Shown: one piece after another, positions 6,829 through 32,459 of the stretch
Position numbering within the stretch: the stretch's first letter is position 1
How the letters are laid out: each line of letters starts with the position of its first letter
Origin: a virus
Taxonomy: Duplodnaviria > Caudoviricetes
Length of the DNA: 64,000 bases
Reading direction: 5' to 3' (one strand)
Virus record (IMG/VR): IMGVR_UViG_3300033121_001287
Coordinates: 20,525 to 84,524 of that record
The notes under the pieces: model-generated
What the model saw: only the letters and a program-made list of their open reading frames with translations
Database searches by the model: none
Told to the model about the DNA's origin: nothing
Made by a program: the position numbers and the translations under genes

Positions 6829-7269
6829 ATGGCAATCACACAGAAGGATCCGAACACGATCTGGCTCGGCGGCCCACGCACGGAGATCAACGATCTCGCA
6901 GCGTCGGAAGTCATCAAGCCGGGCCATCTGCTCGTGCGGTTCAATAACAACGGCGTCATCCGACTGAAGAAGCACGCCACGGCTGGCGGCGCTGCAGTCA
7001 AGATCGTCGCGACCGAACAGAGCATGCTCAACAAGGGCGTGGATGACACCTACGCCGCGAACGACCTCGTCGAGGCATCGGAGTTCGGTCCCGGCGCGTC
7101 GGCGTGGATGTTCATCAACTCGGGCCAGAACATCTCGGCCGGAGGTCTGCTCGAATCGGCCGGTGACGGCACGCTCCGCACGCTCGCCTCGGGTGTGGCG
7201 CTCTTCGCCGCGCTCGAAAACAAGAACGCCACCGTCTCGCCGACGCGCATCCGCGTCGAGGCCGTCTAA
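6829..7269 (+). CDS. Capsid decoration/cement protein
   Basis: Lies between scaffold and MCP; ASEVIKPGHL...GQNI..GGLLESAGDGTL pattern; strong RBS GGAGTGAGAGG. Confidence 0.65.
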   Translation: MAITQKDPNTIWLGGPRTEINDLAASEVIKPGHLLVRFNNNGVIRLKKHATAGGAAVKIVATEQSMLNKGVDDTYAANDLVEASEFGPGASAWMFINSGQNISAGGLLESAGDGTLRTLASGVALFAALENKNATVSPTRIRVEAV

Positions 7270-7305
7270 CCTAGACGCCTCGGCGTCATCAGGAGGATCC
7301 GCACC

Positions 7306-8352
7306 ATGTTCGACAACATGCGATTCACGGCAGCCGGTGGCAAGAGCCCCATCGCTGGCGCGTTGCTTCGTGCTCTCGCGGAAACAGGTGACCTGTCGGT
7401 CGCTTCGCTCCGCTCGCTGTCGCCACTCAGCGACAAGGCGCAGGTGATGGTTGACAAGGCCGTCGTCGAGGTGGGGCTGCAGCGCCTCTCCTTCGTCGCC
7501 GACCTGCTCGCCGAAGGCCTGACGTACCCCCTCACCGATCCGCTGTCGGTGACGCAGCTCGAATGGGAATCGGTCAATCAGGTCGGGCACGCGCAGCGCA
7601 CCATGAGCCCTTCGGCTCGCGGTGAGTTCCAGATGCCGAACCGGACGATCTACCGGCTTCCCATCTACCTCACGACTGACGACTTTTCGCTCGGCATCCG
7701 CACGCTCAAGATGTCGCAGCGCGTCGGTCAGCCCCTCGATACGTCGCTCATCAAGCAGGCCACTCGCCGGGTCAACGAGTCCATTGAGGACGCCGCGATC
7801 AACGGAGCCACCACGCTCGACGGTCAGCCGCTCTACGTCGGCGGCTACGCAGCGCCGGGCCTGCTCAACGCACCGAATGCCAACACCGTCTCGCTGACGG
7901 TTGATTGGACCGGCGCGAACACCATCGGCACGACCGGCCCCGGCATGGTCACCGACGTTCTCGCGATGATCGGCGCAGCGCAGGCCGACAAGAAGTACGG
8001 GCCGTACAACCTGTACGTCGGCACGAAGGCCGGGAACCTGATCGAAGGCGACTTCAAGGTCAACACCACCGACACGATCCGGCAGCGACTGGAGCGGATC
8101 GAGGTTGGCGGCCGTCGCCTGCAGATCAAGGTCACCGACATGTTCCCCGGTGCATCGACGGGCAATCAGTGCGCGCTCGTGCAGATGACGAACGACGTCG
8201 TCGAGATCGTCGATGGGCAGCGTCCGACGGTGATCCCGTGGACGAGCAACGACGGCTTCACGCTGTTCTGGCTCGTCATGGCCATCATGGTTCCGCGCTT
8301 CCGCTCGGACTACGACGGCAACAGCGGCGTGGTGCTCGGCGTCAAGTCGTAA
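7306..8352 (+). CDS. Major capsid protein, HK97 fold (encapsulin/Linocin-M18-like family)
   Basis: 348 aa; VDKAVVEVGLQRLSFVADLLAEGL, LPIYLTTDDFSLGIR, PLDTSLIKQATRRVNE, GLLNAP; highly biased codon usage; RBS AGGAGG. Confidence 0.85.
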   Translation: MFDNMRFTAAGGKSPIAGALLRALAETGDLSVASLRSLSPLSDKAQVMVDKAVVEVGLQRLSFVADLLAEGLTYPLTDPLSVTQLEWESVNQVGHAQRTMSPSARGEFQMPNRTIYRLPIYLTTDDFSLGIRTLKMSQRVGQPLDTSLIKQATRRVNESIEDAAINGATTLDGQPLYVGGYAAPGLLNAPNANTVSLTVDWTGANTIGTTGPGMVTDVLAMIGAAQADKKYGPYNLYVGTKAGNLIEGDFKVNTTDTIRQRLERIEVGGRRLQIKVTDMFPGASTGNQCALVQMTNDVVEIVDGQRPTVIPWTSNDGFTLFWLVMAIMVPRFRSDYDGNSGVVLGVKS

Positions 8353-8953: not shown

Positions 8954-9526
8954 ATGCCGACGATCATCGCTACCGTCGGCGCGGCAAATGCGAATAGCTT
9001 TGCCACTCACGCTGAAATCAACACCTACTTCGAAGAGCGTCTTCCACTCGCCACTCCGTGGGTCGCGAGCGGACAAGAGGCCGTGATTATCATGGCCGCG
9101 CGCACGCTCGAATCGATTATTCGCCCGGCGAAAACGCTCATGGTAGATAGTCGCGGTACGCGATACTATCGTGCGCGTCGTCAGTGGACCGGCTCCCCGG
9201 CTACCACCACTCAGCGTCTTTCGTGGCCGCGCATCGGCATGTTCGACCGCAATGGCAATGCAATTCCGTCGGATGTTATCCCGACTGAATTGAAGGAAGC
9301 GCAAGCCGAACTTGCAGGTCAGCTTCGCATGGGAGATCGCACTCTCGACAACGACGTCGTGGTGCAGGGCTTGTCCTCCCTCCGCGCCGGTAGCGTGTCA
9401 TTGTCATTCAAAGACGGCATTGTGCCGCAGGTACTGCCAGACGCAGTCCTCAATCTTCTCGTCGATTCGTGGTTGACGGAAGAGACGATCAGTTACCCCA
9501 CCACGGCACTCTTCGAGTCGATCTAA
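8954..9526 (+). CDS. Head-tail connector/adaptor (DnaT_2-like)
   Basis: ANSFATHAEINTYF, QRLSWPR, IP.ELKEAQAELA; position after MCP. Confidence 0.75.
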   Translation: MPTIIATVGAANANSFATHAEINTYFEERLPLATPWVASGQEAVIIMAARTLESIIRPAKTLMVDSRGTRYYRARRQWTGSPATTTQRLSWPRIGMFDRNGNAIPSDVIPTELKEAQAELAGQLRMGDRTLDNDVVVQGLSSLRAGSVSLSFKDGIVPQVLPDAVLNLLVDSWLTEETISYPTTALFESI

Positions 9527-9909
9527 TGGGTCTCCTCGACGTTGTGCGATCCGGGGTGAAGATTGCGGATGCCCTGACGAAGTCTCTGCAGGCTTCAGTC
9601 ACCTACCGTCGTTGTATTTCGACGAACCAGTACGGCGTCAAGCAGCTCGGTTCGCCTGTGACACTACTGGCACTCGTTGAGAACAAGCAGCGTAAGGTGA
9701 TGTCACCGACCGGCGTGATCGTAGACTCAAACATTACCATCACGCTGCTGAACGTAGCCGCCGTCGTAGCTGCTACCGGTGGTTTTGGGATTCGCGTCAA
9801 TGACGAGATCGTACTTGCCGACGGATCCACCAACCCGGTACTGAACGTCGGTGGCTTTGTAGACGCTGGAACGAATCAGCCGTTCGCGACGGAGGTGTAC
9901 CTTGGGTAA
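9526..9909 (+). CDS. Head-closure protein
   Basis: TAATG coupling to the adaptor; beta-rich, about 127 aa; synteny. Confidence 0.6.
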   Translation: MGLLDVVRSGVKIADALTKSLQASVTYRRCISTNQYGVKQLGSPVTLLALVENKQRKVMSPTGVIVDSNITITLLNVAAVVAATGGFGIRVNDEIVLADGSTNPVLNVGGFVDAGTNQPFATEVYLG

Positions 9910-10981
9910 CCTCCAGTATCCGGTTGGATGCCCCGATCTTGGGCCGTTTGAGGCAGCAGCCGTTGCTGCGGTCATGGCCACAGGGCATATCACGCACGGC
10001 CCGGCGGTACGTAGGTTTGAAGACCTGCTTGCGGTGCATCTCGGAGTCAAGCATGTGATCGCTTGCTCCAGTGGAACCACTGCATTGCATCTGGCTTGCG
10101 CTTCGATCTTCGGACCTGGAGATCAGGTGCTTGTACCAGACGTGACCTATGTAGCCACCGCGAACGCAGTGACCTACACTGGTGCTGAACCGGTGCTTGT
10201 AGATATTCATCCGGATACGTGGAACATCGATCTCGCACAAGCGGAGCGCAGACTGACTCCTCGCACACGCGCGATGATCGTTGTGCATTTGTACGGCGTG
10301 CCGTGCAACATGGATGAAGTACTTGAGTTCGCGAACAAGCACGACCTCATTGTCATTGAGGACGCGGCCGAAGCGCTTGGTGGTTCGTGGAACGGCAAAC
10401 CCTGCGGAACGATGGGCTTGTGCGGCACGTTTTCGTTCTACGGGAACAAGATCATGACCACTGGCGAGGGCGGGGCCGTCGTTACCGACGACGATTCGCT
10501 CGCGCACGACTTGAGGCTTCTGCGTGGTCAGGGTCAGTCGCCGAATCAGCGCTTCTGGCATGAGCTAGTTGGATACAACTATCGCATGACCGATCTACAA
10601 GCTGCGATTGGTATCACTCAGTTGCAGCGCTTGGCTGAAATGCTTCGATTCCGGCATGAAGTGGTACAAACCTATCGCGACATGCTTGCTGAAGTGCTTT
10701 CGTTTCCGGAGATTCCCGGCACTGCTCCTTGGCTGTTTACTGGCCTGCTTCCGGAAGGCAAGTCAGTTACTGAGATCGCGCAGCGCCTGCTTGATCGTGG
10801 TATTGAAACACGTCCGGTGTTCGTGCCGATGCATCGACTTCCCATGTATCAGGAGCAAGACGGTGAATTTCCCGTTTCCTGTTACATCGCCGATCACGGT
10901 ATCAGTTTCCCGACGTACTCAACGCTCGTCAAGCGTGATGTTCAGTTTATCGTTTCGAACCTACTCAGGGCGCTGCGATGA
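9902..10981 (+). CDS. DegT/DnrJ/EryC1/StrS PLP-dependent sugar aminotransferase (perosamine-synthase-like)
   Basis: SSGTTALHLA, IEDAAEALG, SFYGNKIMTTGEGG, GYNYRMTDLQAAIG; TTG start with GGAGGT RBS. Confidence 0.95.
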   Translation: MGNLQYPVGCPDLGPFEAAAVAAVMATGHITHGPAVRRFEDLLAVHLGVKHVIACSSGTTALHLACASIFGPGDQVLVPDVTYVATANAVTYTGAEPVLVDIHPDTWNIDLAQAERRLTPRTRAMIVVHLYGVPCNMDEVLEFANKHDLIVIEDAAEALGGSWNGKPCGTMGLCGTFSFYGNKIMTTGEGGAVVTDDDSLAHDLRLLRGQGQSPNQRFWHELVGYNYRMTDLQAAIGITQLQRLAEMLRFRHEVVQTYRDMLAEVLSFPEIPGTAPWLFTGLLPEGKSVTEIAQRLLDRGIETRPVFVPMHRLPMYQEQDGEFPVSCYIADHGISFPTYSTLVKRDVQFIVSNLLRALR

Positions 10982-11577
10982 CTCCTCAAGAACTTCAGTT
11001 TCTCGAAGACATCAACTTCGCGTCGGTTGGTGACCCTCGACTCCTCGCCGTGCGGGCCTCGGAATTGCTGCACTGGCTCGAAGAGCAGGAGCAGGCCGGT
11101 CTAATTCCGGAGGCGGTGATTTACGAGCCGGTGGTGCAAACGAAGGTCGACAAGATTGTCATTGGGCGTGGATCGCGCATCGACAGCTTCGTCAAGCTCG
11201 AAGGCGGCCTGCGACTGACCATCGGTCGTTACGTTCACATCGCAAGCTTTGCGCATCTCGGCATCGGTGGCGGCATGTTGAGTCTCGGTGACTTTTCCGC
11301 CGTCGCCAGTGGCGGAAAGATCATCTCGGGTTCAAATCAAGCCGACGCCATGACCATGTCGGCGTGCGCTCCGTCGCACACGCAGCGGATTCAGGCCTCG
11401 GTTACTCGCATCGGGAATTTCGCATGCGTACTCAGCGGTGCGACGGTGCTTCCCGGCGTCACACTCGGTGAGGGTGCGGTGTTGGCTGCGGGTGCGGTTG
11501 CGACGAAAGACATCCCTGACTGGGAGATTTGGGGCGGTGTTCCGGCGAAGTTCATGGCCAAGAGGATCGTGCGGTGA
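10978..11577 (+). CDS. Hexapeptide-repeat (left-handed beta-helix) acyltransferase
   Basis: TIGRYVHIASFAHL, VLPGVTLGEGAVLAAGAVATKDIP.WEIWGGVPAK. Confidence 0.9.
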   Translation: MTPQELQFLEDINFASVGDPRLLAVRASELLHWLEEQEQAGLIPEAVIYEPVVQTKVDKIVIGRGSRIDSFVKLEGGLRLTIGRYVHIASFAHLGIGGGMLSLGDFSAVASGGKIISGSNQADAMTMSACAPSHTQRIQASVTRIGNFACVLSGATVLPGVTLGEGAVLAAGAVATKDIPDWEIWGGVPAKFMAKRIVR

Positions 11578-12254
11578 ACATTGCCATCGGGTCGGCATTC
11601 CGAAACGCCAGTCACTTTGTGCATCGATACATTGCACAGGTGCGGCGGCTTCAGGAGCACGCCGGTCCCGATCATACCGTTCGAATCATTGCGGCCGAAG
11701 GCGACTCCGTCGATGACACGCGGTTGGCCTTGATGCGGGCCGCTACTGATGCGGGGCTTGGGATCGAATTCGTAGAGTGCTCACATGGGAAGCGATGGTT
11801 CGGCTCTACTGAGGAAGTCGAACGGTTAGAAACGCTCTCGAAAGTGGGCAACGCGATTTTCAACGGCGTACGAGAGACCGACGACGTACTGCTTTACGTG
11901 GAATGCGACCTGCTATGGGATCCGCACACGGTTGGATCCTTGATTGACATGGCCTTCAGGCGTGATGAAGGGTTTGACGTATTCGCGCCGATGGTGATGG
12001 CTGGCGAGCATTTCTACGATATCTGGGCGTTTCGCATGCGCGGTGAACGATTCGGCCCGTTCGCTCCGTTTGCTCGACTGAATGCCGGGTTGACCGAAGT
12101 GGATAGCGTAGGAAGCTGCTTGACCATGCGTGGTAGCGTAGCTCGTGAATGCCGAATTGAAAATGATTACTGCTTGGTGGGCTGGTGCGAAGGCGCTCGT
12201 CAACGTGGTTATCGCATAGCAGTTCATCCCGGCTTCAAGGTGCATCACCCATGA
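11574..12254 (+). CDS. GT-A fold glycosyltransferase-like protein
   Basis: IAIGSAFRN, AEGDSVDDT, LLYVECDL (DxD-like), DSVGSCL; GTGA overlap with upstream stop. Confidence 0.7.
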   Translation: MNIAIGSAFRNASHFVHRYIAQVRRLQEHAGPDHTVRIIAAEGDSVDDTRLALMRAATDAGLGIEFVECSHGKRWFGSTEEVERLETLSKVGNAIFNGVRETDDVLLYVECDLLWDPHTVGSLIDMAFRRDEGFDVFAPMVMAGEHFYDIWAFRMRGERFGPFAPFARLNAGLTEVDSVGSCLTMRGSVARECRIENDYCLVGWCEGARQRGYRIAVHPGFKVHHP

Positions 12255-13180
12255 GGGTCTACGTCAATTCGCCGTCGCACTTGTCTCGCGCAATGTTCCG
12301 CGTAGACAAGGCGCTCGTGAAGTATCTCCCACCGAATGCTGCGGTGGTTGAGAGACTTGCACTGGCGGATCTCGTGGTGATCCCGGTGATCGGGTACCCG
12401 GATGCCGTCGGGGCCGTGCAGGACTGCATTGATCGCGGACAAGATTTCGCGATGATTCAGTACTGCGTACGAACTACGCAGGAGCCGCACACTCGGAAGT
12501 GGCTTCCCTTGTGGAAGCAAGCCAAGTGCGTGTGGAGCTACTACAATCTGAATCAGATGATTCGGGATGATAATCCCGATATGACCGAAGAAGAGCGTCA
12601 CATCCCGTCGTTCTACGCGCCGCTCGGCGTCGATGAGGTCTTTGCCGGTCACCGTTCGGGCTACGCACCGCGCACCATTGGTGCTGTTACAACCGGATAC
12701 GTTTCGGGATCATCTGCGGAAGCCATTGAGGAAGTGGCTATCGCTGCTGGAAAGCTCGGCAAGCGAGTTTCGCATATCGGGCCGTTTCCGGTTGGTATGT
12801 CCACCGAGTCACCCGGTAGCCACTGGCAGTTTCACTTTGCCATTAGCGATGAGGAACTTCTGCACATCTACGAGCGCACCGAGTGGGTGTCTGGTCTTCG
12901 GCATGGCGAGGGGTTTGAACTGCCGGTCCTTGAAGGTCTTTGTTGCGGCGCACGTCCGATTCTGTTCGACCGTCCTGAAATGCACTACTGGTATGACGGA
13001 CACGCGGTGTTCGTACCGGAGTGCTCTGGAGAGGAGCTAGTCGCTCACCTTGTTCGAATCATGTCCACGCCGCCTGAGCCGGTATCATTCGACGAGCGCA
13101 GGCGGATCATTCGACGCTTTGACTGGGCGTCGATTGCTGCAGACTTCTGGTCATACACTTTTCAGAGCGTGGGGCAATGA
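12251..13180 (+). CDS. GT-B fold (GT4-like) glycosyltransferase
   Basis: PLGVDEVF and EGFELPVLEGLCCGARP (E-x7-E motif). Confidence 0.85.
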   Translation: MRVYVNSPSHLSRAMFRVDKALVKYLPPNAAVVERLALADLVVIPVIGYPDAVGAVQDCIDRGQDFAMIQYCVRTTQEPHTRKWLPLWKQAKCVWSYYNLNQMIRDDNPDMTEEERHIPSFYAPLGVDEVFAGHRSGYAPRTIGAVTTGYVSGSSAEAIEEVAIAAGKLGKRVSHIGPFPVGMSTESPGSHWQFHFAISDEELLHIYERTEWVSGLRHGEGFELPVLEGLCCGARPILFDRPEMHYWYDGHAVFVPECSGEELVAHLVRIMSTPPEPVSFDERRRIIRRFDWASIAADFWSYTFQSVGQ

Positions 13181-14328
13181 AAAAGCTGTTATGGATCGGT
13201 GATGCTGCGTGTCCAAGCGGGTTCGCACGTGCGACCCATGCGGTACTGGATGCGCTGAAAGAGTACTACGCAATTACGGTGCTTGGTATCAACTACCGTG
13301 GCGATCCTCATAGCTATCCGTATCCCATCTACACGGCCGCAGCCGGTGGTGATATGTTCGGGATCGGCCGGACAATCTGGATGTGCGATACCGTCAAGCC
13401 CGATGTGATTGTCATTCAGAATGATCCGTGGAACTTTCCCGGCTACCTCAAAAAGTTGCAGCAGTTCGAGGAGTACAAGGACGTTCCCGTGGTTGGCGTT
13501 GTAGCCGTTGACGGAAAGAACTGCGGCGGCAACTGGCTGAATGGACTGACGCACGCGATCTTCTGGACTGAGTTCGCGCGCCAAGAGGCCGTCGAAGGCG
13601 GATACACCGGAACGTCGAGCGTGATTCCACTCGGCGTCGATCTCGACATTTTCACCGTCGTAGATCAGAAGATGGCGCGCGAACGCATCGGGATTCCGGA
13701 AGTGCTGATGGACGCTTACTTTGTCGGTAACGTCAATCGCAATCAGCCGCGAAAAAGGTGGGATCTGTGCGTGCGTTACTTCGCGAAGTGGATTCAGCAG
13801 TTCGACATCAAGGATGCGTACCTCTACCTGCATACCGCCCCCACCGGCGATACTGGCGTAGACGTCGCCAAGTTGGCGAAGTACTACGGTGTAGCGGATC
13901 GACTCGCGTTGATGGAGCCTCCTACATGGTATGGCACCTCCGACGAGCACATGCGCGACACTTACAACTCGTTCGACGTTTGCGTTAGCACGACGCAGGG
14001 CGAGGGCATGGGATTGACAACGCTCGAAGCAATGGCTTGCGGCGTTCCATGCATTGTACCTCAGTGGTCGGCGCTTGGTGATTGGGCCTCGCAGGGAGCG
14101 TATCAAGTGAATTGCGATACAACCTGCATTGGGCCGCCTTACGTGAACGTGATCGGTGGCGTTCCCAACGAGGAGGACTTCATCGAGGCTCTTCAGACGA
14201 TGTACTCCAGTAAGCGGATGCGCCGTCATTGGGGTACGCGTGCTTTGGACTGCGCGCACGAGCAGCGTTTTTCATGGGCGTTCATCGGTGAGCAGTGGCG
14301 TGAAGTCATGAAGGGTATCACCGCATGA
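13177..14328 (+). CDS. GT-B fold (GT4) glycosyltransferase
   Basis: SGFARATH, VGNVNRNQPRKRWD, EGMGLTTLEAMACGVP. Confidence 0.9.
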   Translation: MKKLLWIGDAACPSGFARATHAVLDALKEYYAITVLGINYRGDPHSYPYPIYTAAAGGDMFGIGRTIWMCDTVKPDVIVIQNDPWNFPGYLKKLQQFEEYKDVPVVGVVAVDGKNCGGNWLNGLTHAIFWTEFARQEAVEGGYTGTSSVIPLGVDLDIFTVVDQKMARERIGIPEVLMDAYFVGNVNRNQPRKRWDLCVRYFAKWIQQFDIKDAYLYLHTAPTGDTGVDVAKLAKYYGVADRLALMEPPTWYGTSDEHMRDTYNSFDVCVSTTQGEGMGLTTLEAMACGVPCIVPQWSALGDWASQGAYQVNCDTTCIGPPYVNVIGGVPNEEDFIEALQTMYSSKRMRRHWGTRALDCAHEQRFSWAFIGEQWREVMKGITA

Positions 14329-14741
14329 AGCTGACCGGTCGACTTCGAGGTCGTGAAGCGATGGTGCGAACGCTCCAGCGCATTGCGACGAAGTTTCCTG
14401 ATCACGTCGCCGCTGCGATGTATCAGGAAGCTCAGATCGAAATGACCGAAAGCAAGCGTCGTTGCCCGGTGTCGCCGCTCCCGGCCCCAAAGGGCGTGGT
14501 ACCGGGAACGCTTCGCGACAGCGGGCAGGTGGCGCGGCCTGACCGGCGTGGAAAGCACATCTCGGTGACCATGAGTTACGGAGGGGCGGCCGAAGACTAC
14601 GCCGTCGTGCAGCACGAGAACTTGGATTTTCACCATACGACGGGGCAGGCGAAGTTCTTGGAGTCGGTGATCAACGAATCGAGGCCGTACATGGCCGGGC
14701 GCATTGCGGATCGCGTCCACCTGAATAAGGTGAGGTTCTAG
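14325..14741 (+). CDS. HK97 gp10-like tail completion protein
   Basis: CPV...GTLRDSG, YAVVQHE, GQAKFLES. Confidence 0.8.
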   Translation: MKLTGRLRGREAMVRTLQRIATKFPDHVAAAMYQEAQIEMTESKRRCPVSPLPAPKGVVPGTLRDSGQVARPDRRGKHISVTMSYGGAAEDYAVVQHENLDFHHTTGQAKFLESVINESRPYMAGRIADRVHLNKVRF

Positions 14742-15146
14742 ATGCCGTTTCTCGATGAGATTGCTGCGTGGTTGGCAACGGAGGGAGTGGGAATTCCGGG
14801 TCAATCGTTATTCCTATCTTCTGCGGCAATACCTCCGAACGGGGATGGGCCGTACCTATCCTTGAAGGAGACCGGCGGTACTGGATCGACGAGGATCCAA
14901 AACAAGGCTTCGGCGGCAACGCATAGACCTACAGCGCAGGTAAGCGTAAGGGCGAAGGACTACACCGAAGCACGTGCGATGGCAGCAGCCGCGCACGATG
15001 CACTCGATGGGATCTTCAATCAGAACCTTGCAGGCGTCTGGTATGTCAGCGTAACGGCGAGGCAACTCCCGACTGACGCGGGATCGGACGACGTAGGTCG
15101 CGCGATGGTGGTGTTCAACATCGACGCGGAAAAAGAACCCTCATAG
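14742..15146 (+). CDS. Tail terminator / minor capsid-3-like protein
   Basis: IAAWLATEG, ETGG, RPTAQVSVRAKDY, VFN; synteny. Confidence 0.75.
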   Translation: MPFLDEIAAWLATEGVGIPGQSLFLSSAAIPPNGDGPYLSLKETGGTGSTRIQNKASAATHRPTAQVSVRAKDYTEARAMAAAAHDALDGIFNQNLAGVWYVSVTARQLPTDAGSDDVGRAMVVFNIDAEKEPS

Positions 15147-15161
15147 GAGGAGTGAAAGACA

Positions 15162-15602
15162 ATGAGCATCGCCATCAGCGGTCACGGAACACTCGTCGCG
15201 CGTGCCCTTTCGGCCACGCCGACCGTGTTCACCAACATTGCCGAAATGCAGGACGTCACGCCCCCGCAGCTTTCGCGCAATGAGTTCGACGCCACCACTC
15301 AGGACCGGAACATCGACGCGTACGTGCTCGGCGTGTTGCGCCGCAGCGCGTTCACGATGTCGCTGAACTTCCTGAACACCGACGGTTCTCACGACCACCT
15401 CACCGGTCTGATGAAGGCGATGATCACGGAGCCGCCGCCCATCGACGGTTATCGCATCACCTTCCCCGACGGCGTCGTGTGGGTCATGAGCGGTCAGGTC
15501 CAGTCGATTTCCCCGAAGGCGCCGGTCGACGGCAAGCTGTCGGCCGATGTCACGATCCGCCCCTCGGGCAAGATGACCATCGGCGGGGTCGTCGTCGGGT
15601 AG
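15162..15602 (+). CDS. Major tail tube protein
   Basis: IAEMQDVTPP.LSRNEFDAT, YRITFPDG..W.MSGQV; RBS GGAGGAG. Confidence 0.85.
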   Translation: MSIAISGHGTLVARALSATPTVFTNIAEMQDVTPPQLSRNEFDATTQDRNIDAYVLGVLRRSAFTMSLNFLNTDGSHDHLTGLMKAMITEPPPIDGYRITFPDGVVWVMSGQVQSISPKAPVDGKLSADVTIRPSGKMTIGGVVVG

Positions 15603-21234: not shown

Positions 21235-23141
21235 TGCCGACGCGCACGCTGACCATCAATGGCGCGACAAAACAAATTCTGCCCGGTTGGACGATCAATG
21301 AATCGATCAACAACCGGTCAGTTTTTTCATTTCAGTTGGTCGCCGATACTATCGCGAGCATGCCCGCGCTCGGCGACGAGGTCGTCTTCATTGAAAGCCT
21401 CGAACGCATCTTCGGCGGGAACATCGACACGCCGGTAGCGACGGGCGTCAGTAGTGAGCCATCGACGAAGGTCATCGCGCAGATCTCCTGCACGGACTAC
21501 AACGCGCTCGCCGATACCCGATTCGTATTGCTCGACTTGGATTCGGCAACCCTCAAGAGCGTGCTGCAAAGCGCGGAGGCTGCCGGTTTCTTTCCGGCCG
21601 GTGTGACGCTCGATGCGGCGCAAGTCACCGGGCCGACGCTGCCGAATTTATCATTCAGAGACTACGAAGATCGATGCATGCTGTCGAACTTCCTGAATGA
21701 GATTTGCGCGCTCGATCCGACCTATAAGTACATCTGGAACATCGACTACAATAAGAAGCTGAAGGTCTTCCTTCCATCGACGAACCCTGCGCCATTCGAC
21801 ATGATCGACGGCGACCAGCGGATCATTGGCGACCTTCGCGTCGAGCCATCCAGCCTGAACTACGCGAACCGCATCATTCTGCTCTTCGACGCTATCGACG
21901 CCCCCGTCGCTGCTTGGGGCTTCCTGCAAGTCACCACGAACTTTGTGGACGGTGATAAAGTCAAGCTCGGATCGACGACTTACACCTTTAAGAACTCAGT
22001 CGGTACCACCGCAAACCAAGTCAAGGTTGGTGTCGACTCAGAAACTAGCCTGCAGAATCTCGTAGCCGCGATCAATCTCGGTGCTGGTAGTGGGACGCTT
22101 TACGGTTCAGACACCGAGTTGAACGATTCGGCTTACACCTACATGGGTGCTATCGGAGCTACGGACGCGAACATCGCGGCCAAGGCCCATGAGCCCGGTG
22201 CTGCCGGAAACTCCATCGCTGTTGAGTCGGTGCATTCGGATAACTCACCGAACACCGGTGCAAAGTGGTTGTGGGAAGGCGGCCTTGATCTTACGACGCT
22301 ACAAGGTGGCAATGATGAGCGCACGCTGATTCGGTACGTTGACTCGCGTCACTCCTCGTTTGCTACAAACCCCGTCGAACGCACGATCAAGATCCCCGGA
22401 TTGACCGACCCCGTAGTCGCACAGAAGTTGTGCGATAACGCCCTGACATTGGCGTTGAACGTCCCGAAGAAGGTCAATTACACCACGATCATGACCGGCT
22501 TGCATCCCGGTCAGGTGCAAACGATTCAGTACGCGAAGCGCGGTATCAACGGGCAGTACTTGATCACCGATGTTACCAAGCGCAGTCGTGACGCCGGTGA
22601 AAGCGCGAACGTTGTCATTCATGAAGTCACCGCCATCGAAGGTACGGTTTTCAGCGATGATTGGCGGCAGTCGTCGATGTTTGGCGGGGCAGGAGACGCC
22701 ACGGTAAGCGGCGCACTGACTATCGTCAATAACACATCGTCCGGCGGCGGCGGCACCGGAGGATCCGGGGTTGCCATTGTGGAACTTGGGGGTAGCCGTC
22801 TTTACGGGTACACCAGTAACGTCTGGCGTGACGCGCCTGAGTTCAACGACAAGATTCTCAATGTATCCGCCGTCGGACGATTTCGTTGTCATCAGAAGAC
22901 AAACGATGCGGGCACAAGCGTACAGACTCGCGTCGTAGCCGTCGATAGCGCTGGAGCGGTCATCGCGCAATGCGCGATCTCACCTGCTTCGACGAACACG
23001 GGATGGGGCTACGGCGAAGCGGGTCATTACGTGGACGTGGAATTCACTCCCATTGCAGGCGTGAACGCATATCGACTGCAAATCAAGGGTTCAAACGCAG
23101 CGGCAACAGTGTGGGTCGCAGGAGCCTACTTGTCATGGTAA
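21234..23141 (+). CDS. Tail tip / baseplate hub-like protein
   Basis: Follows the TMP; WTINESINNRS, YANRIIL, GLHPGQVQTI...GQYLITDV. Confidence 0.65.
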   Translation: MPTRTLTINGATKQILPGWTINESINNRSVFSFQLVADTIASMPALGDEVVFIESLERIFGGNIDTPVATGVSSEPSTKVIAQISCTDYNALADTRFVLLDLDSATLKSVLQSAEAAGFFPAGVTLDAAQVTGPTLPNLSFRDYEDRCMLSNFLNEICALDPTYKYIWNIDYNKKLKVFLPSTNPAPFDMIDGDQRIIGDLRVEPSSLNYANRIILLFDAIDAPVAAWGFLQVTTNFVDGDKVKLGSTTYTFKNSVGTTANQVKVGVDSETSLQNLVAAINLGAGSGTLYGSDTELNDSAYTYMGAIGATDANIAAKAHEPGAAGNSIAVESVHSDNSPNTGAKWLWEGGLDLTTLQGGNDERTLIRYVDSRHSSFATNPVERTIKIPGLTDPVVAQKLCDNALTLALNVPKKVNYTTIMTGLHPGQVQTIQYAKRGINGQYLITDVTKRSRDAGESANVVIHEVTAIEGTVFSDDWRQSSMFGGAGDATVSGALTIVNNTSSGGGGTGGSGVAIVELGGSRLYGYTSNVWRDAPEFNDKILNVSAVGRFRCHQKTNDAGTSVQTRVVAVDSAGAVIAQCAISPASTNTGWGYGEAGHYVDVEFTPIAGVNAYRLQIKGSNAAATVWVAGAYLSW

Positions 23142-26100
23142 AAAGAGCGCTGATCGCGTTGCTGATGCTGGTGTGCTTCTATTCATCGGCTGCTGCACAA
23201 GACATCGTTGGACAGAAGTTGACGCTATTGTCACTCGCATCTCGGGCTTCGGAAACCGAGTGCCTCTGGATCAACAGTAGCACCGGCGTCGTGGTCAAAG
23301 GCGCATGCCCGGCAGGCGATATCACCGGCGTATCCTTCACACTACCCTCGATTTTTGATGCGGTATCGGCTTGTACCACTGGTGATTGTGCCTTCACGTT
23401 TGTGCTCGCATCCCAGTCGGCCAACACGATTTTCGCGCGTTCAACCGGGGCAGGCCTGCCATCGTTTCAGTCAATGACAAAAGCGATGACACCGGCTACG
23501 ACGGTGCATACGGATCAAACAAATACGTATGGTGCATTCCTGCAAACCTTCGGTGGTGGGTTGACGGTAAGCAGCGGCACCACGACGACGCAGGCCCTGT
23601 CATCGACGACGGGTACGTTTAGTAGTACGCTTGCCGTGACAAGCACTGCGGATCTTAAGGGCAATATCAGTGATAGTACCGGCAATCTTACATTCAACGA
23701 CTCGGCTGATATCCTTGACAATCTCAATCTTGGATCGGCCGCCGGTGAGTACGTAAGAAGCGCAAACTACGTATCGCGCACAACTGGTTGGCAAGCCGAC
23801 TACGGAGGTAACGCGGATTTTCGCGATCTCTTTTCCGATCAGTTGAAGGTAAAGCTTTTCACCGTCGAACAGACGCAGGCGGTGAATGGGTCCATGCAGT
23901 GGACAAAATCGGTAACAGAACTTGCTGGCGAATCTACCGTAGCTGGCGCGGTAACCTGTCCGACGCTTGGTGCTGCTGAGACCTATTGGTTCCGTGACTT
24001 TCCAAACGCGGCTAATATTCGGGTGTTTCAGGCGAACGACTACGTTTCCATTCGTACCCTTTCATGGGCAGATAGTGGGACGGATGGCGCCGCCGAATTG
24101 AACGTGAGTGACTGCATCGGCGTCGTAACTGCCTACGCGGATGGTACGGCTGGCAACGACGGTTATCAGTCTTGGACTTTTACACGACCGGCCGGTGCGA
24201 ACGGTGGTTCAATGGCGGGAGGCACAAGCATCCCGTTGAAGGTGCAAGCGTTGAACTACGGTGTTACGGCCGATGGCGTGCTTGAAGCCACAGTGACGGA
24301 TGGGTCGAACAACGTCAACGCTCCGTACTTCGGAGTGAAAAAGTGGACGACCTCGCCTATTGCGGCAAACTTCACAGCTCTTGCTCGATTCGGTCAGCTT
24401 CGCGGTATCACAGGCACCGACGAGTACGGGATCTTTGCGGGTCCATCTTACAACGCAGTCAACGGGCAGTTTTTCCGTGCTTCTGATCAGAACTTTGATC
24501 TGCACGGCATTGACTTCAGTTTGTGGGATGCCGATAGCGCCAACATTATTATGCGCCGTAACAGCGGCAACCCGTACTTTGCCGTCGGCAACCCGGCCCC
24601 AACCACCTACGCTTCTGGTGAGGGCATCTGGCAAGGGAGCGATAGCGGTACCTACAAGTTCCGCATCGGAAACCCCGGTGGGAATCTGCTCGCTTACGAT
24701 AGCGGAACTGACATCTTGAGTGTGACTGGATCGATTACGGCTGGATCGGGCGCAATTGGTGGCTGGTCGATTGGAACGTCGGCACTCACTTCGGGCAGCG
24801 GGGCCACAACGGTGGGATTGGATTCAGGCGGAACGAATCCCGCTATCTACGCCGGTAGCGCAACGCCGGGAAGCGCACCGTTTAGAGTGACAAACGCTGG
24901 TGCAGTGACGGCAACGAACGCAACGGTCACCGGATCGATCCAGACGACGGCGAACTGCGGATCGGCTTCGACGTGGTGCGGCATCTTCGACTCGAACGGG
25001 CTGAAGTGGTACGACTCCAACAACGTGCTGCGCGTGCAGTTGTCGAGCACGTGGAAGGGAGTGGCCGTCCAGTCGAGCACGTTCAGTGACATCTACGATA
25101 AGGAAGGCAATTTCGAGTTCATGGGACCGTCGGGTTCCGTTGGAATCTTTGGCACGACGGCATTCGAAAACGCGGCACACACCGTCAAGCACGTGAAGTT
25201 GACAACGAGGAACGCCTACGCAACGGGCGCATCGACGAAGGCGGCGTACTTGCACATCACCGCAGAGGGCACGAACACCTCGAACGCGACCGACAGTGAA
25301 ACGGCAGGCGGCGCGCGGATCGAGCTGTACTCAGCAGGCCCAAGCGCCACGCAGACAATCACGGCAACGGCGGCGACGTCCATTGCAGCCGTGACTCCAA
25401 TCATGGAGGTCGTGCAGGATGCCGCGTCAGCGAACTTACAGGCGACAACCTACATCGGTGCCGGATCCGGACTCGTTGGCGTGTTGAAATCACGCACGGC
25501 TCATGGAACATCCGGATCACCAACACAGATGCTGTCCGGTGAGCGGTACGGCCTCGTCGCCTTCGAAGGCTACGCAACGACGACGGGTTTCGTCGCTAGC
25601 AGCGTAATTAACGCGTACGCGACGGAAAATCACACGAGCACGGCGCGAGGATCCTACATTTCCATTGGTACGACCCATGCAGGTACGACGACGCGTGCAG
25701 ACCGAGTGAAGATCAGTTCCACTGGTGGGGGCTCCCCAACGCTTGATACGCTCGCAGGCGCATGGGGCACGGGCGCATCAGCCTACGGATCCTTCATCGG
25801 ATCGGGGAATAATTCCTCAGGTAACGGCGCTGCCGGGAACCTTTCGATGTATCGCCGTAGCGGCACCATCGACTACGTGTGGTCAGACAACGCCGGGAAC
25901 CTGCGGATCAACTCCGCGCCGCCGTCCGAATCGCTCGGGTCGCCCAACTACGATACGACCACTGGTACGGTCGTCGGCACACAGACCTCGTCGCGTCGAT
26001 TTAAGAACGTGCTACATGAGCGTACTGACTACGAAGCCATGCGAAACGTTGTGTTGTTCGCACCGGTATGGGATTTCACTTACAAGTCCGGCGCGTTTGG

Positions 26101-26284
26101 TGGGGAAACATTCACCGGTATTACCTGCGAGGATACACCTGAATTCTGCATGGATGGTGGTAAAAGCCTCAACCCGGCAAACGCTATCGGGTACCTGATA
26201 GGTACGATTAAGGCGCAGCAAACTGAAATCGACGATCTAAAGACACGTCTCGCTCGTCTCGAAGCTCTTCTCGGCGGCCGGTAA
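23135..26284 (+). CDS. Tail fibre/spike with C-terminal peptidase S74 intramolecular chaperone and apparent N-terminal signal peptide
   Basis: TSSRRFKN...WDFTYK...IKAQQTEIDDLKTRLARLE. The ATG at 23135 overlaps the upstream stop and gives MVKRALIALLMLVCFYSSAAAQD. Confidence 0.8.
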   Translation: MVKRALIALLMLVCFYSSAAAQDIVGQKLTLLSLASRASETECLWINSSTGVVVKGACPAGDITGVSFTLPSIFDAVSACTTGDCAFTFVLASQSANTIFARSTGAGLPSFQSMTKAMTPATTVHTDQTNTYGAFLQTFGGGLTVSSGTTTTQALSSTTGTFSSTLAVTSTADLKGNISDSTGNLTFNDSADILDNLNLGSAAGEYVRSANYVSRTTGWQADYGGNADFRDLFSDQLKVKLFTVEQTQAVNGSMQWTKSVTELAGESTVAGAVTCPTLGAAETYWFRDFPNAANIRVFQANDYVSIRTLSWADSGTDGAAELNVSDCIGVVTAYADGTAGNDGYQSWTFTRPAGANGGSMAGGTSIPLKVQALNYGVTADGVLEATVTDGSNNVNAPYFGVKKWTTSPIAANFTALARFGQLRGITGTDEYGIFAGPSYNAVNGQFFRASDQNFDLHGIDFSLWDADSANIIMRRNSGNPYFAVGNPAPTTYASGEGIWQGSDSGTYKFRIGNPGGNLLAYDSGTDILSVTGSITAGSGAIGGWSIGTSALTSGSGATTVGLDSGGTNPAIYAGSATPGSAPFRVTNAGAVTATNATVTGSIQTTANCGSASTWCGIFDSNGLKWYDSNNVLRVQLSSTWKGVAVQSSTFSDIYDKEGNFEFMGPSGSVGIFGTTAFENAAHTVKHVKLTTRNAYATGASTKAAYLHITAEGTNTSNATDSETAGGARIELYSAGPSATQTITATAATSIAAVTPIMEVVQDAASANLQATTYIGAGSGLVGVLKSRTAHGTSGSPTQMLSGERYGLVAFEGYATTTGFVASSVINAYATENHTSTARGSYISIGTTHAGTTTRADRVKISSTGGGSPTLDTLAGAWGTGASAYGSFIGSGNNSSGNGAAGNLSMYRRSGTIDYVWSDNAGNLRINSAPPSESLGSPNYDTTTGTVVGTQTSSRRFKNVLHERTDYEAMRNVVLFAPVWDFTYKSGAFGGETFTGITCEDTPEFCMDGGKSLNPANAIGYLIGTIKAQQTEIDDLKTRLARLEALLGGR

Positions 26285-26666: not shown

Positions 26667-27139
26667 CTACCCCCGTCATTTGGCCGTACCGACTCGCGAT
26701 GGCAGTGATTTGGGTTGGGCTCGTGATCTTTCTCACGACGGTGGGCTACATCGTGTGGCCCTCTCGCCCAATCTACGTGAGTGAACCGATCCCTATCGAG
26801 AACAAGAACAAGCAGGTTGAAGCGGGAGATATTCTCTATCTTGTCATGGCTTACAATAAGCCATTCGACAACGAGACCTTTATCGGTGTCATGGTGGCCA
26901 GTCGCGGCACGATATGGCTTCTTCCGGTCACCCTTGCGGCGCTGCCTCCGAACTCCGAAGACGAGCGAGGGCATGTCATACGAATACCGGTTCCTATTCC
27001 GCACGAAGTAACTCCGGGGCAGTACGTTGCCGTGCTATCGATTGTGCATCCGGTACGGCTCCCACTTCCCACTCTTTTTCATAACGCGGTGCGAGCGCAT
27101 AGCGAGCCATTCACCGTCGTAGCGGCGAAAACACCATGA
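26663..27139 (+). CDS. Membrane-anchored protein with beta-rich exported domain
   Basis: N-terminal TM AVIWVGLVIFLTTVGYIVW. Confidence 0.6.
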   Translation: MTTPVIWPYRLAMAVIWVGLVIFLTTVGYIVWPSRPIYVSEPIPIENKNKQVEAGDILYLVMAYNKPFDNETFIGVMVASRGTIWLLPVTLAALPPNSEDERGHVIRIPVPIPHEVTPGQYVAVLSIVHPVRLPLPTLFHNAVRAHSEPFTVVAAKTP

Positions 27140-27606
27140 ACAGACCTAGCGAGCATCTCACGTGGGATGAACTGGCCTGCTGGAACCGATTTGTTCCAAG
27201 ACCGTTCATGATCGCGCCGTATCCGCTTGACTACCGCGAAACAAGGCTTCCGATCCTCGTGAAGGAGTTCGAAGCCGTGCGCGCGGAGTTGTGCCATCGC
27301 GCTGGACGCGACGTGCCGATTACCATTAACTCCGCGTACCGCACTGCGGGCTACAACGCCCGATTGGAGGGTGCTTCACCCGTCTCGCAGCACGTTGAAG
27401 GACGAGCGCTGGATCTTGCGCTCTCTAGCGAGAACCGCCATCTTCTGCCCGATCTTTACGACTCCGTAGTGTGGAGATCGAAGCAACCCGGCAGCGCTCT
27501 CAAAGGCATCGGCCGCTACAACACGTTTGTTCACATGGACGTTCGTCCCTCGACTCACGTCGCCACTTGGGATCTCAGATCCACGAAAGGAAATGACAAT
27601 GCGTAA
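27136..27606 (+). CDS. Peptidase M15 family endolysin
   Basis: INSAYRT..YN, SQHVEGRALD, GIGRY.TFVHMD (Zn ligands H, D, H). Confidence 0.9.
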   Translation: MNRPSEHLTWDELACWNRFVPRPFMIAPYPLDYRETRLPILVKEFEAVRAELCHRAGRDVPITINSAYRTAGYNARLEGASPVSQHVEGRALDLALSSENRHLLPDLYDSVVWRSKQPGSALKGIGRYNTFVHMDVRPSTHVATWDLRSTKGNDNA

Positions 27607-31966: not shown

Positions 31967-32170
31967 ATGGAACTTGAAGATCGGTGTATCGAGTCCTCTC
32001 GCCGCGTAAGCGAATGGCTAGACCATGCCGCAAAGTTGTGGAAAAAGGGGCTCGAAGAGGACTCCATCATTGCAGTGATGGAGGCGAAAAGCACACTGAT
32101 TCATCTTGAAGGCACAATGCGCTCGCGCATCTGGCGCGCGGCCAAAAAGGAGGAAAAGTCAGATGAGTGA
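31967..32170 (+). CDS. Hypothetical protein
   Basis: Short helical ORF coupled to neighbours. Confidence 0.5.
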   Translation: MELEDRCIESSRRVSEWLDHAAKLWKKGLEEDSIIAVMEAKSTLIHLEGTMRSRIWRAAKKEEKSDE

Positions 32171-32459
32171 AAAAACAAAGTTGTTCCTAACCATCCTGTT
32201 CCGATACGTCGTCGTCGCGTTGCTTGGTCGACTCGTTGACATCGGCGTGTTCACCAAGTCGGAAGCGGAATCCTTCACACCGTGGCTCGTCGAAGTCGCG
32301 GTCACACTCGGCGTGCCGACGTTCATCGCGTTCTTGGCGCACTACGCGTCAAAGAGCAGACTGCGGCAGGTCGAAGCAGCTGCATCACTTCAACCCGAAG
32401 ACGCCTCAATGAAAAACATCAACGAGGTGGCCAACCAGATGAAGAAGGAAGGACTATGA
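32163..32459 (+). CDS. Holin-like two-TM protein
   Basis: Two hydrophobic segments and a charged C-terminus; RBS AGGAGG. Confidence 0.55.
   Translation: MSEKTKLFLTILFRYVVVALLGRLVDIGVFTKSEAESFTPWLVEVAVTLGVPTFIAFLAHYASKSRLRQVEAAASLQPEDASMKNINEVANQMKKEGL

Follow-up and report, generated by a model that had tools for sequence, protein, structure and literature searches.

Why would a tailed phage carry a set of sugar enzymes among the genes that join its head to its tail? The question is raised by a stretch of viral DNA of 64,000 nucleotides (hereafter the window), which spans bases 20525-84524 of a virus genome of 84.5 kb from IMG/VR (IMGVR_UViG_3300033121_001287) rated complete by CheckV. Positions 9902-14328 of the window encode five enzymes, referred to here as the cassette: a DegT aminotransferase, a hexapeptide acyltransferase, one GT-A and two GT-B/GT4 glycosyltransferases. 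An initial annotation of this DNA had suggested that the phage decorates its particle with a rare sugar of its own making. We found this to be the best-supported reading, although no acceptor protein or acceptor motif was found. Based on the gene context, we lean towards the view that the product of the cassette is a glycan on the phage's own particle proteins.

The source phage is an uncultured siphovirus. Its nearest deposited relatives by capsid protein are Brevundimonas phages, with an identity of at most 32%, and a nucleotide search of the cassette DNA against deposited phages returned no match.

To place the cassette within the late genes, start codons were judged by the lengths of homologues together with the positions at which alignments begin. 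Two starts were corrected: the GT-A gene begins at GTG 11574 instead of 11529, and the first GT-B gene at ATG 12251 instead of 12185. With the corrected starts, none of the eight junctions between 8954, at the start of the head-tail adaptor gene, and 15146, at the end of the tail terminator gene, contained an intergenic gap, and seven of them overlapped by 1-8 nt (these genes and the candidate acceptor genes described below are all on the + strand). The overlaps comprise TAATG at 9526, 8 nt at 9902 (preceded by GGAGG), ATGA at 10978, 12251, 13177 and 14325, and GTGA at 11574. At 14742, the ATG immediately follows the stop codon of the preceding gene, an abutment without overlap. Neither terminator-like nor promoter-like sites were predicted on the + strand between 9000 and 15100. 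The gap-free or overlapping junctions, together with the lack of a predicted internal terminator or promoter, point to a single late transcript for cassette and neck genes, as the initial annotation had proposed. Judged from its sequence, the cassette forms part of the late structural transcript and is predicted to be expressed late. The catalytic motifs of the cassette enzymes are intact and are invariant in their families (K183 of the aminotransferase, both E-x7-E motifs and the E-x-D of the GT-A enzyme).

The anchor GT4 gene and its variable neighbours

The conserved member of the cassette is its last gene (13177-14328), which encodes a GT4 glycosyltransferase of 383 aa that we call the anchor GT4. 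At E ≤ 1e-10 it has at least 1443 relatives, with phage-sized contigs in all 120 that were listed, and IMG/VR holds at least 598 loci. We scanned 100 related loci with profile HMMs (hidden Markov models) built on the phage's own family; these loci contained 74 distinct GT4 variants after clustering at 95%. The GT4 gene was located directly upstream of the HK97 gp10-like neck gene in 71 of the 74 variants; one cluster has it after the tail terminator and before the tail tube gene. In loci that showed the upstream neck gene, the distance from there to the GT4 gene was 0 to 6344 nt. The contents of this variable space depended on the lineage. It was empty, or held a Methyltransf_24 methyltransferase, or the first GT-B gene alone; in other lineages, a B12-binding radical-SAM enzyme and a methyltransferase accompanied four GT2 enzymes, GT2 enzymes occurred together with a GT15-like enzyme, or a methyltransferase and a different DegT enzyme were found with an FdtA-like cupin.

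The identical five-gene set was present in at least seven lineages, some of them with capsid proteins only 30-36% identical. Two relatives with capsids 67-68% identical (L024 and L025) are devoid of the cassette, and in both the homologue of the neck gene 9526-9909 abuts the gp10-like gene. In another locus (L015), the GT4 was 58% identical, compared with 47-57% for the neck proteins, and was thus about equally conserved. A cultured phage, Synechococcus phage S-CBS4, has a 30%-identical GT4 flanked by portal and head protease; a GT2 and a methyltransferase accompany it there. Throughout a large phage family, the GT4 gene keeps its site while the genes that precede it are swapped. The initial annotation had called for a synteny survey; the survey described here favours a virion-linked role, since about 74 lineages have the GT4 gene at a constant place next to neck or tail genes.

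Some of the exchanged genes allow a closer description. The radical-SAM enzyme of L019 (13905-15509) and L021 (4443-6047) has 534 aa, is located amid four GT2-like genes and the methyltransferase, and may be a sugar C-methylase or epimerase. At positions 5789-7278 of L022, and also in L047 and L085, an FdtA/WxcM-like cupin of the ketoisomerase type is followed by the different DegT enzyme (37% identical), which suggests a 3-amino sugar branch replacing the perosamine branch.

Gene order around the site also varied. L098 has rearranged neck genes and two GT4 copies (7001-8185 and 13630-14835), one downstream of the capsid gene and one between terminator and tube. Four loci (L090, 3334-4233; L092, 3460-4359; L085, 2104-3071; L017, 15973-16892) have two tandem tube-protein-like genes that follow the adaptor and precede the upstream neck gene, an order that is unusual for a siphovirus tail module; L085, L090 and L092 are devoid of a tube gene after the terminator, and the L017 locus stops short of that point. 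An insertion of about 4.6 kb separates the gp10-like gene from the terminator in L052 (8628-13209), and the terminator-matching frame of L062 (2697-5204) extends over about 2.5 kb. Together, the insertion and the long frame indicate that the downstream junction of the gp10-like gene is plastic as well.

The neighbours of the cassette are neck genes, as had been stated in the initial annotation. The upstream flank of the neck module is the gene for the head-tail adaptor Ad1 (8954-9526; phrog_477, E = 6.4e-26; PF20557, E = 1.2e-23). The gene directly next to the cassette (9526-9909) encodes 127 aa from ATG 9526; its homologues are likewise 127 aa long, and their alignment begins at residue 20 of the longer frame. 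Searches of this gene against Pfam and PHROG gave no match, and the name "head closure" assigned to it earlier follows from position only. On the downstream side, 14325-14741 was without a match in Pfam and PHROG, while an ESM Atlas feature search returned HK97 gp10 family clusters in 24 of 30 matches (score 0.96). We treat this as a lead, not as proof, that the gene is HK97 gp10-like. Its homologues align from residue 5, in favour of the start at ATG 14325. The tail terminator gene (14742-15146; PF12691, E = 2.9e-9; phrog_2595 and phrog_123) follows.

Predicted enzymes and the sugar they may build

Which sugar could such a cassette supply? The first gene (9902-10981) encodes a DegT-family aminotransferase dependent on pyridoxal phosphate (PLP), with a PF01041 score of 374.9 bits (E = 5.9e-112; cut-off 19.8). 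The best solved relative is the perosamine synthetase of Caulobacter (Per, 3bn1/3dr4; E = 1.3e-98, 333 bits over 345 residues), and the second-best structure scored 255 bits, 78 bits below Per. The PLP lysine, K183, lies within an SF-x-GNK-x3-GEGG motif that aligns to 3bn1. Scores against NCBIfam equivalogs all remained below cut-off (LegC, 295 of 420; PseC, 265 of 423). By sequence, the enzyme is probably of the GDP-perosamine synthase type. Its best homologues in cellular genomes were at most 46% identical and scattered over many phyla, giving no signal of a host or donor.

The second gene (10978-11577) encodes a left-handed beta-helix (hexapeptide) acyltransferase (PF00132, 43.6 bits; cut-off 27). 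The best solved relatives are the structures of the 3vbi-3vbp series (E = 1.4e-11), which represent AntD of B. cereus, the N-acyltransferase of a 4-amino-4,6-dideoxy sugar (PMC6031040); PerB (4eab) was a weaker match (E = 8e-6). The top NCBIfam matches were O-acetyltransferase families, all far under their cut-offs. Since AntD is the nearest structure, yet the family matches resemble O-acetyltransferases, we consider N-acylation of a 4-amino sugar likely, not settled. Because the enzyme is nearer to AntD than to PerB, its acyl donor could be something other than acetyl-CoA. The chemistry initially ascribed to these two genes agrees with their nearest relatives, a GDP-perosamine synthase and a sugar N-acyltransferase.

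Dehydratases and epimerases of the SDR (short-chain dehydrogenase/reductase) type and nucleotidyltransferases (PF16363, PF01370, PF00483) were absent from the whole 84.5-kb genome. The lack of a visible dehydratase, recorded in the initial annotation, thus extends to the entire phage, and the keto-sugar precursor must come from the host, as had been assumed there; it is probably GDP-4-keto-6-deoxymannose. The steps encoded by the phage are the final two, transamination and acylation, and the earlier description of the amino-sugar synthesis as complete was overstated.

The identities of all five enzymes were borne out by Pfam, PHROG and NCBIfam, complemented by AlphaFold2 models and Foldseek for two weakly scoring glycosyltransferases. 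The first of these two proteins (11574-12254; 226 aa, GTG start) was under the Pfam cut-off, with 22.7 bits versus 28.8 for CAP59_mtransfer (GT69, PF11735), and belongs to a family of 239 members that are mostly named hypothetical. Its model (pLDDT, the predicted local distance difference test, 94.5) matched human COLGALT1 best (GT25; E = 3e-12, TMq 0.68-0.73), followed by GlfT2 and LH3. At least 500 matches had E ≤ 0.001, and the matches listed are glycosyltransferases, chiefly of the GT-A fold. A fold search against viral structures gave generic GT-A matches only. In an alignment of 37 sequences, E110-x-D112 at the DxD position was invariant, and of the motif G43-D44-S45-x-D47 only G43 and S45 were invariant. 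Given the model, we are confident in assigning this protein as a GT-A glycosyltransferase.

The second weakly scoring protein, the first GT-B enzyme (12251-13180; 309 aa, ATG start), also had Pfam scores below the cut-offs. We collected 275 homologues for alignment, and E220-x7-E228 is invariant in the aligned sequences. Its model (pLDDT 93.9) had as top Foldseek matches the methylmannose-polysaccharide mannosyltransferase of M. hassiacum (7qsg), GlgM, MshA, BshA, SenB and PimA, and according to this predicted structure it is a GT-B/GT4-like glycosyltransferase. In three related loci (L030, 5724-7805; L031, 8472-10553; L112, 5724-7805), this enzyme and the anchor GT4 were fused in a single open frame of 694 residues, which suggests that the two GT-B enzymes work together.

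The anchor GT4 itself was recognized by Glyco_trans_1_4 (PF13692; 46 bits, cut-off 27) and phrog_2170 (E = 3.7e-32), and carries an invariant E276-x7-E284 and the motif N-R-N-Q-P-R-K-R at residue 187. A further Pfam match, "GT4-conflict" (PF20706, 38 bits), was set aside, as it overlaps generic GT4 families and adds nothing specific. The closest solved structure was B736L of chlorovirus NY-2A (3oy2/3oy7), matched over the full length with a profile E-value of 1.4e-23, the next structure being at 3e-7; a single-sequence search gave 61 bits for B736L. None of the five cassette proteins had a convincing membrane segment.

From these assignments we propose the following pathway. The host would supply GDP-mannose and convert it to GDP-4-keto-6-deoxymannose by its own 4,6-dehydratase. 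The phage DegT enzyme would aminate this intermediate to GDP-perosamine, which would then be N-acylated by the hexapeptide transferase. From the N-acylated sugar and probably mannose, a short glycan would be built by all three glycosyltransferases. Both GT4-type enzymes have nearest solved relatives that bind GDP-mannose or are mannosyltransferases. The glycan would be made in the cytoplasm while head, neck and tail are being assembled. No open reading frame with three or more membrane spans was found in the whole genome, which argues for cytoplasmic assembly; the phage would lack a flippase, a polymerase, a Gtr-type enzyme and a priming transferase of its own.

The exchange of genes in front of the anchor GT4 would further imply that lineages differ in their glycan, comparable to O-antigen serotypes. 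We therefore put forward, tentatively, that a "virion serotype locus" is situated where the head-closure and gp10-like genes meet. There, an invariant, B736L-related GT4 would prime a particle protein and exchangeable tailoring genes would give a lineage-specific glycan, which in this phage would include an N-acyl-perosamine drawn from the GDP-mannose pathway of the host. We regard this narrower proposal as possible and somewhat short of probable.

Where the glycan may be placed

If the glycan is attached to the particle, the capsid, decoration, tube, neck and fibre proteins would be candidate acceptors. The major capsid protein is encoded at 7306-8352 (tblastn to annotated Brevundimonas phage capsid proteins, 32% identity, E = 2e-37), a head decoration protein at 6829-7269 (phrog_766, E = 2.9e-10) and the tail tube protein at 15162-15602 (PF16461, E = 1.1e-10; phrog_158). 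The decoration-family gene is placed upstream, not downstream, of the capsid gene. Besides the position of the anchor GT4 and the comparable embedding of the Corndog cassette in a head operon (see below), we count its closest solved relative, B736L, in favour of a glycan on the particle, because chloroviruses glycosylate their own capsids.

Several observations weigh against this reading. The C-termini of capsid and tube proteins showed no acceptor signature, being alike with and without the cassette among relatives. A scan of the whole genome for Ser/Thr-rich tracts found only one in a real gene, that of the tail protein 22970-26284 (residues ~195-235). This protein is a possible glycan acceptor, but the tract is too weak to use, since fibres often contain Ser/Thr-rich tracts. 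O-antigen clusters, too, are typically made up of GT4, GT-A and perosamine enzymes. The initial annotation had pointed to glycosylated mycobacteriophages as a precedent, and with the proven enzymes of these phages there is no detectable homology: between the cassette and Che8 gp108-110 or Corndog gp35-38, BLASTP gave no match below E 0.01, and hhalign gave a probability of about 1%.

The anchor GT4 family is also not confined to phages. When cellular genomes were scanned with the help of profiles, about 40 homologues, approximately 40% identical, turned up in chromosomes of Verrucomicrobiaceae and Planctomycetes, and these loci had no match to the phage structural-gene profiles. We rejected a virus-only clade for the anchor GT4 on these grounds. 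The Verrucomicrobiaceae homologues (L143-L188) have an N-terminal extension of about 90 residues. In the single locus that was inspected, that of Prosthecobacter fluviatilis (L162, 2367-9196), the genes around the GT4 homologue encode an RseP-like protease, another GT4, a polysaccharide pyruvyl transferase and a Ser/Thr kinase. This polysaccharide-type locus indicates that the GT4 family is not intrinsically protein-modifying and can serve glycans other than those of virions.

A different situation was found in two Acidobacteriota contigs of metagenome-assembled genomes (L141 and L142; 5.76 and 4.36 Mb), in which portal, capsid, neck, GT4, gp10-like and tube genes follow each other within chromosomal contigs. 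The phage-type order inside contigs of this size indicates that some members of the family are prophages. Acidobacteriota are a likely host phylum of the family, the hosts of which are probably Gram-negative or Acidobacteriota.

Could the cassette instead remodel an envelope glycan of the host, such as the LPS (lipopolysaccharide) O-antigen, capsule or S-layer anchor, during infection? The enzymes would add perosamine and mannose to lipid-linked intermediates of the host at the cytoplasmic face, and the host machinery would export the product, which might block superinfection or keep progeny off debris. The kinds of enzymes are typical of O-antigen clusters, the nearest relative of the DegT enzyme is a Caulobacter perosamine synthase, the neighbours of the anchor GT4's cellular homologue include a polysaccharide pyruvyl transferase and another GT4, and some members of the family are prophages in Acidobacteriota chromosomes. 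We nevertheless consider this explanation unlikely. The cassette overlaps late neck genes rather than belonging to a lysogeny or early module, and a surface change made late would leave little time before lysis. Tyrosine integrases and serine recombinases (PF00589 and PF00239) are absent from the genome, as are a GtrA/B, Wzx or Wzy membrane protein and a priming transferase; the lack of integrase and recombinase, combined with that of any frame with three or more spans, argues against a classic seroconversion module of the Gtr type. In addition, the GT4 gene stays with neck or tail genes even after it has moved.

The same attachment to the gp10-like or tube genes, kept across lineages that differ elsewhere, speaks against a cytoplasmic target outside the virion structure. 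Under that explanation, the enzymes would glycosylate putative packaged cargo, a host protein or a small molecule, or would make a free oligosaccharide. They are soluble, the scans for acceptor signatures were negative, and B736L itself is without an identified acceptor (PMC9614988). Nothing ties the cassette to the putative cargo genes, which lie 6-10 kb upstream, and we hold a target of this kind to be quite improbable. Glycosylation of the phage DNA against restriction, as in T4-like and hypermodifying phages, would be in line with the classical function of phage glycosyltransferases, and diverse DNA glycans are known (cited in PMC12619734). A ThyA-type hydroxymethylase (PF00303) was not found in the 84.5-kb genome, while control genomes responded to the same search. 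Moreover, the genes belong to the late structural operon and not to a replication module, and searches of the PDB (Protein Data Bank) gave no similarity to known DNA glycosyltransferases. We therefore judge DNA as the target to be very improbable.

Two further genes of the window lie outside these considerations. A Peptidase_M15 gene of the endolysin type is located between large tail genes (27136-27606), and a small protein with two membrane spans (32106-32459) may be a holin.

If the glycan is indeed placed on the particle, virion glycosylation would extend to a very large environmental siphovirus family (the at least 598 IMG/VR loci and at least 1443 related protein clusters given above), including prophages of Acidobacteriota. 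Rare amino sugars would be finished by the phage from host precursors, as in giant viruses. Should the proposal of a serotype locus also hold, the particle glycans of phages that infect Gram-negative bacteria and Acidobacteriota would match bacterial O-antigens in diversity and in the pace of their evolution. A conserved anchor enzyme combined with interchangeable tailoring genes would indicate strong diversifying selection on the particle surface. This bears on how phages adsorb, how stable they are in soil and water, whether lectins of hosts or predators recognize them and how immunogenic therapeutic phages are. The cassette offers concrete, expressible enzymes for testing.

Relation to known glycosylation systems

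How does the cassette compare with systems of known function? The Caulobacter GDP-perosamine pathway resembles it in two respects: the DegT gene matches Per (3bn1/3dr4) with a conserved PLP lysine motif, and the acyltransferase gene follows the DegT gene as PerB acts after Per. It differs in that the phage acyltransferase is closer to AntD than to PerB (4eab) and in that the phage genome is without a Gmd dehydratase.

Giant viruses encode whole pathways, including the dehydratase, and these act on UDP-linked sugars (viosamine, bacillosamine). The phage differs from the Megavirinae by carrying the aminotransferase and acyltransferase only, by substrates that are probably GDP-linked and by the position of its genes in a siphovirus neck operon. 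What it shares with the Megavirinae are viral late steps for rare amino sugars of the bacterial type, together with glycosyltransferases. For these viruses, PMC10117803 and PMC8456856 describe clade-specific clusters for the virus-made rare amino sugars of the (Mimivirus) fibrils and give the virion surface as the target.

The chlorovirus enzymes B736L and PBCV-1 A546L are, like the anchor GT4, virus-encoded retaining enzymes of the GT-B/GT4 type. B736L binds GDP-mannose best, and its acceptor was not identified (PMC9614988). This preference fits a cassette based on GDP-sugars. B736L comes from a giant virus of eukaryotes, however, the similarity to it is low, and mannose is absent from the capsid glycan of NY-2A (PMC9614988).

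In the case of phages, the comparison is with the mycobacteriophages Che8 and Corndog. To our knowledge, a sugar coat on the phage virion has been shown experimentally in a few mycobacteriophages only. According to PMC12619734 and PMC12363180, which describe work by Freeman et al. (2023), the glycans decorate the C-terminal ends of capsid and tube subunits and require Che8 gp110 and Corndog gp38, and PMC12363180 names Corndog gp38 as essential for capsid glycosylation. The Corndog cassette has the order portal, TylF/Methyltransf_24 methyltransferase, gp36, a GT2-like gene, the GT25 gene gp38 and protease. The key enzymes of Corndog and Che8 are GT25 and GT2 enzymes with GT-A folds, whereas the conserved enzyme here is a GT4 with a GT-B fold. 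Their sites are the head module or the genome end, compared with the head-closure/gp10-like junction in the neck. A nucleotide-sugar aminotransferase and an acyltransferase are present here and in neither the Corndog gp35-38 nor the Che8 gp108-110 block. The hosts of Corndog and Che8 are Actinobacteria, whereas those of the family described here are probably Gram-negative or Acidobacteriota. The source phage itself carries no methyltransferase, but its relatives contain one of the same Methyltransf_24/TylF type as Corndog. As in the cassette, multiple phage-encoded glycosyltransferases are co-oriented with structural genes in both mycobacteriophages, and in Corndog the set lies within the head operon. 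We conclude that the resemblance to the mycobacteriophage cassettes is one of architecture, not of family membership.

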